A program made the translations under genes and the position numbers. The notes beneath the pieces are model-generated. The model saw nothing but the letters and a program-made list of their open reading frames with translations. It was not told the origin of the DNA and searched no databases. This document shows positions 2,146 to 6,505 of a stretch of 64,000 nt of DNA, in pieces (the first letter of the stretch is position 1; every line of letters begins with the position of its first letter). Source of the DNA: Escherichia phage VEc74; sequence record MT932213.1; one strand, 5' to 3'.

Positions 2146-3150
2146 TTAGCTCACCAACTCAATCCAAGCTGGACGAAGTACATCTTGCACCATTTTAACT
2201 AATTCCTTTTTAATCAAAGAAGGATTATCTGCTTGAGTTAGAGTAATACCTTCACGAGAAGTTTCTTCCAAAATATCTTGAACAGTTAACCCCATCACCT
2301 TTCCAAAATCCTTTGGACCAATTTCGCCAATTTTAGAAATAACGTTATTTACGCGGTTCAGTGTAACGTAACAAGCTAAAATTCCAACCAATTTGTTATC
2401 AGCTTCTGATAGCTCAACTTTAGCTTTAATAGGCTTATCAGACTTTTTCTTTTCACTAAATTTGGAATTCTTGCATTTGATGGCTACACGATTTCCATTA
2501 TGAAGCCAAGAAGGATAACACGGTTTCAATACATATCCTTCGGCAGTAAATACTTCACCTTTTGCTTCGGCATTCCAAACGCATTTATTTGCATCAACTA
2601 ATCCAGCATGGTCTACTGTAAAATTATAATCTTGGACGACAGAATCTAAATCATTTGGCAATTTAATAAGCTCTTCAAATTTACCGCGACCTAAAAGTGG
2701 AGCCATTTTAAATTTAAATGTATTACAGAATGATTCCATCATATAATCGTCGACATAAGTCACATCACCACTTTCTGTAGTGACAATAATGTCAAATACA
2801 TAAAAATCTTTATCGCCATAATCAACATTCTTCTGAATGCCAGGTCCAGCGAATTCGCCAAAGACTTGATAAGATACAACCGCTGAGGTTTCCATAATAT
2901 CTTGTACTGCTTTAATGGAATCAGCGTAATTCTTTAAAATAATTTCATACCCAAAGAAATCTTCAGCGGGAAGAATCGGTCCAGTACGTTTAGCGCAAGT
3001 TACTTTATCACGCTCAATAATCAATGAGAAATTTGTACCGTGAATCTTTTCACGAGCTACCCACTCCCCACCAGTCAATCCCAAGCTATAAAGTTTTTCA
3101 ATAAATTTAGAGTTGTAATGATTTTCAAGACTGCTATACTTTTTAAACAT
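2146..3150 (-). CDS. rnlB: RNA ligase 2 (Rnl2, gp24.1)
   Basis: 334-aa ORF; N-terminus [43 protein letters not shown] with KxHG-type nucleotidyltransferase lysine motif matches T4 Rnl2. Confidence 0.9.
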
Positions 3151-3159
3151 AATTAATCC

Positions 3160-3438
3160 TCAAAACGTAATTTCTAACCAATCACCATCACGCTGATCAC
3201 TATTGACTTTAAAGCTAAATCCTTCTTTTCTCAGCCAATCACCAATTTCTTCAGTAATCAATTTATCACGAGCAATACAATAATAACTAAAATGTGTTTT
3301 ACCTTGTTCAGCTGCTTTATTAGCAAGTTCCGAAAAATCTTTAATAAAGCACTCTAGTTTAAACTGTTTACTTTTGAATGCTTTTTCGCGTAATTGATTA
3401 GCAAAAGATTCATTTTCATAAAGATCATACTGTTCCAT
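3160..3438 (-). CDS. Hypothetical protein (T4 24.2 position)
   Basis: 92-aa ORF, translationally coupled to neighbours; position between rnlB and hoc. Confidence 0.55.
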   Translation of the reverse strand: MEQYDLYENESFANQLREKAFKSKQFKLECFIKDFSELANKAAEQGKTHFSYYCIARDKLITEEIGDWLRKEGFSFKVNSDQRDGDWLEITF

Positions 3439-3640
3439 TTTTCACCTTTTTATTGATATGTCTTTTTCTATAGACAACTTTTTCTCGAGTTTCAAATTTA
3501 TTCTTAGCAGTCATAGCTCGAGCCCATAATACAGCCACTTCTTTTGCCTGTAAGTTTAATTCACGAGCAATTTCAATGAATGACTTTCCAGACTCATGAA
3601 GAGTAAACACCACAACCTCAGTTCTCATAATCAATCTCAT
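3425..3640 (-). CDS. Hypothetical small basic protein, possible HTH (T4 24.3 position)
   Basis: 71-aa ORF overlapping downstream ORF start; ARELNLQAKEVAVLWARA resembles a helix-turn-helix. Confidence 0.5.
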   Translation of the reverse strand: MRLIMRTEVVVFTLHESGKSFIEIARELNLQAKEVAVLWARAMTAKNKFETREKVVYRKRHINKKVKNGTV

Positions 3641-3729: not shown

Positions 3730-5148
3730 TTATGGATAGGTATAGATGATACCAGTTTCTAAAGCAGTTTTATGAATGATGTATCCATTACGCGATTCTT
3801 GGACATCAACTTCTGGATAATCTTTCATCATCTTCTGAAGAGTGTAACGATGCAGGTAGTATTTACTATCTGGATCTTCAGTTTTCCAATCTTTACCTTC
3901 TTCAGTCATTTTTTGAATTTCATCCATAACCCACCAACCACACCAGATGTAAGCTGAGCTACGGTGTGGAAGAGGATGAACATAAGGTAATTCACCTTCT
4001 GGTTCTGGAGCAACTTTATCAGTTACCTGAACTTGACCTTCTGCCGTAATAGTTTTGCTATCATAATCAGCAGCAGTAACAGTTGCAGTAACTTCAATAG
4101 TTTGACTTCCAATAGATGAGGTATCAACGGTATATACATTAGTTGACCCTTCTACAGGAGAAGAATCTTTCTTCCATGAATATTCAATTTGCGCTTCTTC
4201 TGGAGCATCAGTGACATTAGCAGTAAATGTAGCCGAAGCATCTTGTTGAACGTTAATAGAAGGAGGAGTCAATGTAACCTGTGGATTCATTGTCTTCTTA
4301 TTAACCGTTAATGATACTTCATTAGAAGTAACTTCCTTTTCATTGTAATTTTCAGCAGTTACTTGAGCTACGCATTTAATTCTTTTTACTCCACTTGTAG
4401 TTGGAGTATAGTTAAATGTAGAGTTAGTTTCTCCACCAACTTGTGAATCATCTACATACCACTGATACGTAGCAGATGCTCCATCAGGTTGAGAAGCTAA
4501 GGCAGCAGTAAATTGAACTGGGGTTCCGATAACTCCCGCTGGAGGACTATCAGGAGTTACTGCCAAAGTAGTTGTCTGCTCCTTTTTATTAACAGTCAGT
4601 GATACTTCATTAGAAGTAACTTCTTTTGCATCATAATCTGTCGCGGTTACTTGAGCCACACACTTAATTGTTTTAACTCCGCTTGTGGTAGGAGTGTAAT
4701 TGAATGTAGCAGAAGTTGCTTCGCCCACAGGAGAACCGTCAACGTGCCATTGATACGTAGCAGATGCACCTGGTGGCTGCGAAGTTAAGGCAGCGGTAAA
4801 TTCAACAGCTGTTCCAATCACTCCAGCAGCAGGACTATCAGGAGTTACAGCTAAGGTGGTCGTTTGTGTCTTATTTTGAACTGTGATAGTTGTAGTAGCT
4901 TCTGCTGTTTCAGCATCAGTATCTGGGACTGGGTTTGTTGCAACTACTTTAATAGTCTTTTGACCGGCAGGTCCTTTTAGTACATAATTAAAAGTTGCTT
5001 CAGCTCCATCTTGTGGAACATCATCTACAGTCCAAGCATATGTAATAGGTCCATCTCCAGTTTGACCACTGGGTGTAGCAGTAAACTGCTGAGTCTGATC
5101 TATAACTCCAGTAGGTGTTTTAGGAGTTATATCAACTGTAAAAGCCAT
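3730..5148 (-). CDS. hoc: Highly antigenic outer capsid protein Hoc, with one extra Ig-like domain relative to T4 Hoc
   Basis: 472-aa ORF; N-terminal MAFTVDITPKTPTGVIDQTQQFTATPSGQTG and C-terminal capsid-binding region ...YIWCGWWVMDEIQKMTEEGKDWK... match T4 Hoc (376 aa in T4 as I recall). Confidence 0.88.
   Translation of the reverse strand: MAFTVDITPKTPTGVIDQTQQFTATPSGQTGDGPITYAWTVDDVPQDGAEATFNYVLKGPAGQKTIKVVATNPVPDTDAETAEATTTITVQNKTQTTTLAVTPDSPAAGVIGTAVEFTAALTSQPPGASATYQWHVDGSPVGEATSATFNYTPTTSGVKTIKCVAQVTATDYDAKEVTSNEVSLTVNKKEQTTTLAVTPDSPPAGVIGTPVQFTAALASQPDGASATYQWYVDDSQVGGETNSTFNYTPTTSGVKRIKCVAQVTAENYNEKEVTSNEVSLTVNKKTMNPQVTLTPPSINVQQDASATFTANVTDAPEEAQIEYSWKKDSSPVEGSTNVYTVDTSSIGSQTIEVTATVTAADYDSKTITAEGQVQVTDKVAPEPEGELPYVHPLPHRSSAYIWCGWWVMDEIQKMTEEGKDWKTEDPDSKYYLHRYTLQKMMKDYPEVDVQESRNGYIIHKTALETGIIYTYP
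4288..4863. repeat. In-frame tandem duplication (2 x 288 bp) inside hoc encoding two near-identical 96-aa Ig-like domains
   Basis: Protein repeats TTTLAVTPDSP[A/P]AGVIGT...EVTSNEVSLTVNKK occur twice consecutively; DNA copies are visibly near-identical. Confidence 0.85.
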
Positions 5149-5157
5149 AAGTTATCC

Positions 5158-5838
5158 TTATTTTAATGTTACGAAAGAAGAATTGCGTGTTTCACGAATT
5201 AAAACTGATCCGTCACGGTTAATGTAATAAATTAAGCTAAATAAAGTTTGGTGTGCTGACGCATGCTCAAAACTTGTTGGGTGAGATTTCCAATCCGGAG
5301 TTTCAGCGATCCATTGATAAATCCACCAAGGAACAGTGCAGAATCCTGGATTTTTTCCAATCAGCTGAAGATTCGGACTAAAGTTTTCCGGAAGAGTAAA
5401 TACAGACGGCTTTTCAGATTCAATAATCTCAGCTACAGCCTGTTCGAATTTTTCTTCAACAAAAGGAGTATCTTCAATCAAAACATCGGTATTTTCAGGA
5501 ATTTTATCCGTTTCTACTACTTCAATTTTAATGTCAGATTTAACTGGAGAATCAATCAGAAGTACTGCTTCTGGATTGACTTCTTCATCGTCATATTTTA
5601 ATCCCTCTGCGGCATCAGCAGCATCAATTAAGTCTTTAATAGATAACCCATCAGTCTCTGGCATAGGTTCACTAGCGAGCTTCTGGAGGGCTTCTTCAAT
5701 ATCAACAACGATATTATCAAAAGATTTATTCTTTTTGACCTTTATACCAAACTGTTCAGCATATTCAGCTAATTTAGCTTTAGCTTCTTTATTATCATCA
5801 AGAGCCTTCAGCTCTGCAATATAATCTTTATCTATCAT
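5158..5838 (-). CDS. inh: Inhibitor of prohead protease (Inh, hoc.1 position)
   Basis: 226-aa acidic ORF directly upstream of hoc, size and position as T4 inh. Confidence 0.7.
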   Translation of the reverse strand: MIDKDYIAELKALDDNKEAKAKLAEYAEQFGIKVKKNKSFDNIVVDIEEALQKLASEPMPETDGLSIKDLIDAADAAEGLKYDDEEVNPEAVLLIDSPVKSDIKIEVVETDKIPENTDVLIEDTPFVEEKFEQAVAEIIESEKPSVFTLPENFSPNLQLIGKNPGFCTVPWWIYQWIAETPDWKSHPTSFEHASAHQTLFSLIYYINRDGSVLIRETRNSSFVTLK

Positions 5839-5887: not shown

Positions 5888-6505
5888 ATGTACCACTTTG
5901 TATATGAAACAACAAATCTAATAAACGGTAAAAAGTATATAGGAAAACACTCTACTGATGACTTGAATGATGGTTACCTTGGTTCCGGTAAGGCAATTCA
6001 GCAGGCTATAAAGAAATATGGTGAAAACAATTTCTCTAGAACAATACTAAAAGAGTTTAAAACTTCCGAAGAAGCGTACATGTATGAAGAAGAAATTATA
6101 ACTCCTGAAATAATAAAAAGCAAAAATTATTATAATATGAAACCTGGTGGAATTGGTGGAATTGTTATGACTACAGAGGTTATAGCAAAGATGAAAGAAT
6201 CTTCCGCTAAGAGATTTGAAAACTCACCGGGCACGGTATTAGGTACAACTTGTTACACTAATGGAACTAAAAATATTTTTATTAAACCTGGAGAACTTGT
6301 TCCAGAAGGATTTGTAAAAGGAATGGTTCATCCTAATAGAAAGTCCAGAAAAGGATGTAAAGTCAAACCGACTACCACAGGAACTTTTTGGGTCAATAAC
6401 GGTGCAATAAATAAATTAATACAACCAGACGGTATTATTCCCGACGGATTTATTAAAGGTCGTCTCATGAAAAGAGATTCTAAAGGCAAATTTAGTAAGG
6501 CATAA
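5888..6505 (+). CDS. segE: GIY-YIG homing endonuclease SegE
   Basis: 205-aa ORF between inh and uvsW (T4 segE position); N-terminal GIY-YIG-type motif (HFVYETTNLINGKKYIGKH); basic C-terminal DNA-binding region. Confidence 0.75.
   Translation: MYHFVYETTNLINGKKYIGKHSTDDLNDGYLGSGKAIQQAIKKYGENNFSRTILKEFKTSEEAYMYEEEIITPEIIKSKNYYNMKPGGIGGIVMTTEVIAKMKESSAKRFENSPGTVLGTTCYTNGTKNIFIKPGELVPEGFVKGMVHPNRKSRKGCKVKPTTTGTFWVNNGAINKLIQPDGIIPDGFIKGRLMKRDSKGKFSKA

Follow-up and report, generated by a model that had tools for sequence, protein, structure and literature searches.

Hoc of phage T4 is dispensable for infection and sits as one monomer at each gp23 hexamer centre, with 155 copies per T4 capsid. It forms fibres of 180 Å, in which three Ig-like domains stand on a capsid-binding domain, and its homologues form strings of up to ten Ig-like domains, ten being present in Serratia phage Muldoon (PMC10385173). 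The domain number varies widely among T4-like phages, and an extra Ig-like domain is found in the Hoc of Klebsiella phage PMBT63 (PMC13435897). For phage PNJ-9, a single study of a three-domain Hoc reported binding of fucosylated MUC2 by residues S183/L184/T185 of domain 2 (PMC11853027). Nothing relevant to Hoc domain number was found in PMC10580926. A variable number of Ig-like domains in Hoc is already published (PMC10385173, PMC11853027) and unsurprising to a T4 specialist.

The window, i.e. the whole stretch of 64,000 nucleotides from Escherichia phage VEc74 that was analysed (MT932213.1), includes a minus-strand ORF that had been named hoc in a first-pass annotation made from the sequence alone. 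The identification held, as the ORF matched the solved T4 Hoc (5vf3_Z, 376 aa) with E=1.9e-219. The predicted product is the highly immunogenic outer capsid protein, here consisting of a capsid-binding domain preceded by four Ig-like domains. The whole gene showed 94–98% nucleotide identity to the annotated hoc of many Tequatrovirus records, and over its first 12 kb the window showed about 97% identity to many genomes of Tequatrovirus, with no exact match among them. The phage is thus T4-like, of Tequatrovirus type. An inh-like ORF (5158-5838) lies upstream, and 24.3/24.2-like ORFs (3425-3640 and 3160-3438) and an RnlB-like RNA ligase ORF (2146-3150) lie downstream, all on the same strand as hoc. 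This is also the annotated gene order in T4, PaulHMueller, UGKSEcP1 and vB_Eco_Some.

A gene encoding a GIY-YIG homing endonuclease of 205 aa, 99% identical to T4 SegE, was present on the plus strand at 5888-6505, adjoining inh and situated about 750 nt upstream of hoc. In seven of the eight relatives compared over this flank the uvsW helicase gene stands directly beside inh, without a seg gene. SegE promotes local gene conversion in T4, and conversion driven by it could transfer neighbouring hoc alleles between phages.

The gene was divided into the following features:

3730..5148, minus strand: hoc, 472 aa and stop (ORF; match to PDB T4 Hoc 5vf3_Z).
4870..5148, minus strand: Ig-like domain 1 (D1), aa 1-93 (HMM segmentation; AlphaFold2 beta domain with pLDDT 81–93).
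4582..4869, minus strand: domain-2 unit 1, alpha type, aa 94-189, absent from T4 (nucleotide identities).
4294..4581, minus strand: domain-2 unit 2, beta type, aa 190-285, orthologue of T4 domain 2.
4015..4293, minus strand: Ig-like domain 3 by T4 numbering (D3), aa 286-378, the fourth Ig-like domain here (segmentation, AlphaFold2).
3730..4014, minus strand: C-terminal capsid-binding domain, aa 379-472, and stop (97% nucleotide identity to T4, dN 0.004).
4600..4623, minus strand: alpha-unit tail stretch GAAGTTACTTCTAATGAAGTATCA of 24 nt, which recurs unchanged in the beta unit and encodes EVTSNEVS.
4312..4335, minus strand: second copy of the 24-nt GAAGTTACTTCTAATGAAGTATCA, located in the beta-unit tail.

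HMMER aligned residues 1-113 of the window Hoc with residues 1-113 of T4 5vf3_Z and residues 191-472 with T4 residues 95-376, ungapped. These two collinear stretches leave a clean 96-aa insertion in the window Hoc (472 aa) in comparison to T4 Hoc (376 aa, 1131 nt). The alignment supports the earlier claim of one Ig-like domain more than in T4, and the possibility that T4 Hoc has the same domain count falls away, since its Ig-like domains number three. The description of the extra domain as a paralogue of T4 domain 2, in tandem and in frame, is supported as well. The capsid-binding domain showed homology to T4 Hoc residues of about 281-376, and nearly all columns of the C-terminal domain were invariant among 32 homologues.

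The N-terminal string of Ig-like domains was found by Pfam, HMM segmentation, AlphaFold2 domains and fold matches. The Pfam matches in Hoc were PKD, Ig_3 and I-set, with Ig_3 / I-set located at 289-373. An HMM built from the two units divided Hoc proteins of 376, 472 and 568 aa into three, four and five Ig-like units, respectively. The AlphaFold2 model, constructed from a 32-sequence alignment, had a mean pLDDT of 83.5 and included four confident all-beta domains (about 1-93, 94-189, 190-285 and 286-378), bringing the modelled fibre to four Ig-like domains as expected from the earlier claim; the C-terminal domain was modelled at low confidence. The best PDB fold matches were four-Ig-domain fragments of Dscam1, Sidekick-2 and ICAM-5 D1-D4, with TM-scores of 0.16–0.32 that are low because the inter-domain angles differ. 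At the level of the model these matches confirm Ig-like domains arranged in strings, and they are mute on function.

The repeat search found two adjacent 288-nt copies, 4294-4581 and 4582-4869, with 76% nucleotide identity, and TRF gave for the repeat a period of 288, 1.9 copies, 78% matches and a score of 707. When Hoc was compared with itself, 78 of 96 residues were identical (81%) at offset 96, which is far above chance, all other offsets from 80 to 109 giving 8–28 identities. The first-pass annotation had thus been accurate in describing two consecutive 96-aa segments of about 80% identity. It had placed them at 4288-4863, which gives the right length of 576 nt with a shift of 6 nt in comparison to 4294-4869. 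The shift is tolerable because a tandem repeat may be read in any phase, and the domain boundaries favour 4294-4869.

The alpha and beta units of the window were identical at 220 of 288 nucleotide positions (76.4%) and differed at 68. Their third codon positions showed 53% identity, 47% being different, and the Nei-Gojobori method gave a dS of about 1.35, a dN of 0.115 and a dN/dS of about 0.085; evolution of both units under purifying selection is indicated. The longest identical runs between the units were 24, 18 and 17 nt. The first of these, GAAGTTACTTCTAATGAAGTATCA, which no other perfect match between the copies exceeds in length, was largely invariant in 17 units of all three types described below, with scattered single-base differences in four units. 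Between the window and eight other hoc genes, the dS values of D1, D3 and the C-terminal domain ranged from 0.03 to 0.38, and the same-position orthologues in other phages had nucleotide identities of 85–97% to the first copy and 87–99% to the second. Since the dS between the units greatly exceeds that between the orthologues, the paralogues must have arisen long before these phages diverged.

The units were typed at the DNA level from matrices of nucleotide identity and dS, including 17 units from nine hoc genes. The matrices divided the units into three groups, here named alpha, beta and gamma. The alpha group was formed by unit 1 of the window, PaulHMueller, UGKSEcP1, vB_Eco_Some, moskry, wV7 and Killian together with the only unit of teqdroes, and the beta group by unit 2 of the window, PaulHMueller, UGKSEcP1, vB_Eco_Some, moskry and wV7 together with the only unit of T4. 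The gamma group consisted of UGKSEcP1 unit 3 and Killian unit 2, which were 99% identical to each other. The alpha unit of the window was 97% identical to the single unit of teqdroes and 85–95% identical to the first unit in the remaining multi-unit hoc genes, and only 76% identical to its neighbouring unit and 80% to the unit of T4. The beta unit was 99% identical to unit 2 of vB_Eco_Some. The architectures were D1-beta-D3 in T4, D1-alpha-D3 in teqdroes, D1-alpha-beta-D3 in the window, D1-alpha-gamma-D3 in Killian and D1-alpha-beta-gamma-D3 in UGKSEcP1. Apart from lacking the beta unit, the Hoc of teqdroes equals that of the window, and the flanks are nearly identical.

A larger set of 121 proteins was classified by a short central motif, an assignment which is indicative only and by which about 10% of the units were hybrid or unclassified. 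Single units were of alpha type in 33 proteins, beta in 29 and gamma in nine. The two-unit forms were alpha-beta (22 proteins), alpha-gamma (3), beta-gamma (1) and alpha-alpha (1), alpha-beta thus being the commonest, and the three-unit forms were alpha-beta-gamma (4) and variants with a beta/alpha hybrid (4). The remaining proteins had one or two units, including hybrid or unclassified ones. Each of the seven ordered subsets of alpha, beta and gamma was present, and with this motif-based classification no inverted unit order was found among the 121 proteins. The fixed order could result from common descent of a few alleles rather than from constraint. When the units were painted by type-specific bases, mosaic patches appeared within units, the T4 beta unit being alpha-like at its head and carrying a patch of alpha close to the tail. 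Such patches indicate exchange between the unit types.

Also a more distant Hoc of 567 aa, 54% identical overall, was detected. Its first unit was alpha-like (88/96 identities), and it had two further, much more diverged domain-2-like units with 37–51 identities of 95–96. Multi-unit arrays therefore exist also in deeper branches.

The protein search (120 clusters) placed the close homologues in discrete length classes of 376, 472 and 568–570 aa, and some clusters of 472 aa included 58–167 member sequences. The frequency of the two-unit form was estimated from match spans in an evenly spaced subset of 682 GenBank phage records matching hoc. Two units (span 1419–1425 nt) were present in 20 of the 50 full-length matches, e.g. 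RB27, AR1, Sf21 and slur02, and one unit (about 1131 nt) in the other 30, e.g. T4, T6 and RB14; the rest of the matches were partial. Match spans were used since a count of junction-matching records, 275 with a 200-nt query and at least 80% coverage, proved inflated as a measure of two-unit genes: it joined head and tail matches of single-unit genes such as T2 and PEC04, in which two pieces span about 285 nt. Neither were three units present in PaulHMueller, as a two-piece match of 388 nt in PaulHMueller/SfPhi01 had suggested; hoc of PaulHMueller has 1419 nt, i.e. two units. A two-unit hoc was found also in moskry, a Mosigvirus, the record of which itself annotates a repeat_region over the units. 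With its frequency of 20/50 and its occurrence in Mosigvirus, the allele is common, and the databases have contained it for years.

The window Hoc is an ordinary member of this common alpha-beta class, in which proteins of 472–474 aa include D1, alpha, beta, D3 and the capsid-binding domain in that order. A hoc identical to that of the window was not found in the phage collection, the closest being that of vB_Eco_Some (98.0% identity). A separate origin of the other two-unit records is contradicted by the unit matrix.

Some single records deserve mention. D1 and D3 of moskry (MN850651; 1034-2452 in the fetched piece) were 96% identical to those of the window, with dS 0.06–0.11, and thereby nearer to the window than those of many Tequatrovirus hoc genes; this closeness suggests that hoc may have been exchanged between genera. 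In a phage T2 record (PV958097; 1357-2346 in the fetched piece) the hoc region consists of three short Hoc-like CDSs, and hoc there appears to be a pseudogene. In Yersinia phage PST (KF208315; 301-1720 in the fetched piece) the match covers 1420 nt in comparison to the query of 1419 nt and the annotated hoc CDS only the last 930 nt, which suggests an annotation truncated by a 1-nt indel or a sequencing error. The match in Shigella phage KNP5 (KX452698, a 193.6-kb record) is unusually long, spanning 2072 nt in two pieces, and may reflect an insertion within hoc or an assembly problem. Many Hoc proteins were also listed in bacterial assemblies of E. coli, Shigella sonnei and Salmonella, where they bear the name 'PKD domain-containing protein' or, in one case, 'endonuclease'; contigs of T4-like phages within these assemblies, plus a mis-annotation, are the probable cause.

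Taken as a whole, the observations are very probably explained by a domain-2 region of Hoc that is an ordered array of Ig-like units, one to three in number, which diverged anciently and are under purifying selection, and of which the window has alpha and beta. Different phages have different subsets of the units, T4 beta only and the window alpha-beta. Homologous recombination between phages in the same host cell would add or remove whole units and exchange patches. Pairing would probably take place at the conserved stretches of the units, 18 nt in the head (unit positions 21-38) and 24 nt in the tail (4600-4623 and 4312-4335). The change could have proceeded by loss from an ancestral three-unit array or by stepwise gain. 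No crossover points could be placed by painting with type-specific bases, as the mosaicism was too patchy.

One further reading keeps the old alpha-beta architecture and adds that the beta unit of the window lineage was gained or kept by recent recombination, the gene then being a recent mosaic of old parts. It is plausible, if somewhat short of convincing. The D1, alpha, D3 and C-terminal domain of teqdroes, which lacks beta, were 96–98% identical to those of the window (dS 0.06–0.10), vB_Eco_Some shares beta at 99% and alpha at only 95%, and the patches within units and the nearby SegE gene, 99% identical to that of T4 and about 750 nt away, point in the same direction. However, a recent loss of beta in the teqdroes lineage would account for these data just as well, and no breakpoint is placeable.

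The ordered array might also be seen as a set of three cassettes, shared by Tequatrovirus and Mosigvirus, in which polymorphism is kept by selection and the unit ends serve as built-in recombination sites. This extension is tentative and rather unlikely. If it were true, selection on capsid-surface reach, glycan or mucus specificity or antigenic variation would maintain the polymorphism, and co-infecting phages would change the Hoc domain number in whole-domain steps. A diversity-generating or programmed variation mechanism was dropped, as nothing in the hoc locus suggests one. No description of an ordered alpha/beta/gamma array was found in the literature searched, the coverage of which was incomplete, and the pattern is regarded as a modest side observation.

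The first-pass annotation had itself regarded the tandem duplication of domain 2 as probably recent and recombinationally unstable; such an event would be specific to one lineage and unstable to this day. The two units do stand side by side in the same frame, each measures exactly 288 nt, their homology is clear, and their number varies among related phages, yet a recent duplication is very improbable. Instead of near-identity at synonymous sites, the divergence between the copies amounts to 24% over all nucleotides and 47% over third codon positions (dS about 1.35), and the "long direct repeats" on which the instability was based share a perfect match of 24 nt at most. Neither is the pair private to the lineage: each copy is nearer to units at the same position in other phages (85–99%) than to its neighbour (76%), and the architecture occurs in about 40% of full-length matches among the sampled GenBank relatives and in another genus. 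Nor does instability fit an arrangement that is stably inherited in hundreds of records; as unit number is one, two or three between phages, recombination would act on the evolutionary time scale. The extra Ig-like domain is an old and widely shared variant, neither recent nor demonstrably unstable.

An assembly artefact, in which a single domain-2 unit was wrongly expanded or two alleles of a mixed stock were stitched together, is conceivable in principle because alpha and beta each occur alone elsewhere and a mixed lysate could produce a chimaera, but its probability is negligible: the units differ at 68/288 positions and reads would be placed uniquely, the reading frame is intact, the alpha/beta junction is contiguous in many independent records (200-nt query, most matches in a single piece, up to 100% identity in vB_Eco_Some), and one-piece matches of 1419 nt occur in dozens of records from different laboratories. 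The caveat of the first-pass annotation that the duplication might be such an artefact is thereby implausible, given diverged repeats in many independent genomes.

In the virion, the C-terminal domain would anchor one Hoc at the gp23 hexamer centre with the Ig string projecting outwards, as expected from T4 biology. The fibre of the window phage would then be longer than the 180 Å of T4 by about one Ig domain, roughly 40–45 Å. It would also display the domain-2 surface twice, including the NEVSLT motif, which is present in the window Hoc at aa 180-185 and 276-281. The S183/L184/T185 residues of PNJ-9 correspond to the SLT of NEVSLT in an alpha-type unit, the Hoc of that phage being D1-alpha-CTD.

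For annotation, this means that the 376-aa Hoc of T4 is not the norm of the genus, as about 40% of the sampled full-length matches have four Ig-like domains and a few have five. For phage display and phage therapy it is of note that longer Hoc scaffolds exist in nature, with two or three copies of a domain reported as mucin-binding in one relative. For the study of evolution, the hoc locus forms a clean small case of whole-domain presence and absence among anciently diverged paralogous Ig units.

In comparison to T4 Hoc (376 aa; PDB 5vf3, 8t1x, 8t9r), the window Hoc shares D1, D3 and the capsid-binding domain at 86–97% nucleotide identity, D1 being 88% identical with dS 0.28. The single unit of T4 was 90% identical to the beta unit of the window (dS 0.2). 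The difference lies in the alpha unit, which in the window (aa 94-189) follows D1 and precedes the T4-like domain 2, and which T4 lacks. The two-unit Hoc proteins of RB27, AR1, wV7, slur02, SHFML-11, PST and vB_Eco_Some (472–474 aa) share the order D1-alpha-beta-D3-CTD, and also the BASEL phages PaulHMueller and KarlGJung have a two-unit Hoc of the same architecture. These relatives were 90–98% identical to the window over the whole of hoc and differ only by point differences. The three-unit proteins of UGKSEcP1/UGKSEcP2 (568–570 aa) and the alpha-gamma protein of Killian follow the same unit order and carry a gamma unit, which the window lacks. The Hoc proteins of PNJ-9, PMBT63 and Muldoon share with the window the principle of a conserved capsid-binding domain and a variable Ig-like string. 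In them, however, other domains have been added or removed: the Hoc of PNJ-9 lacks the D3 present in the window (PMC11853027), and those of PMBT63 and Muldoon stand at a far greater sequence distance.
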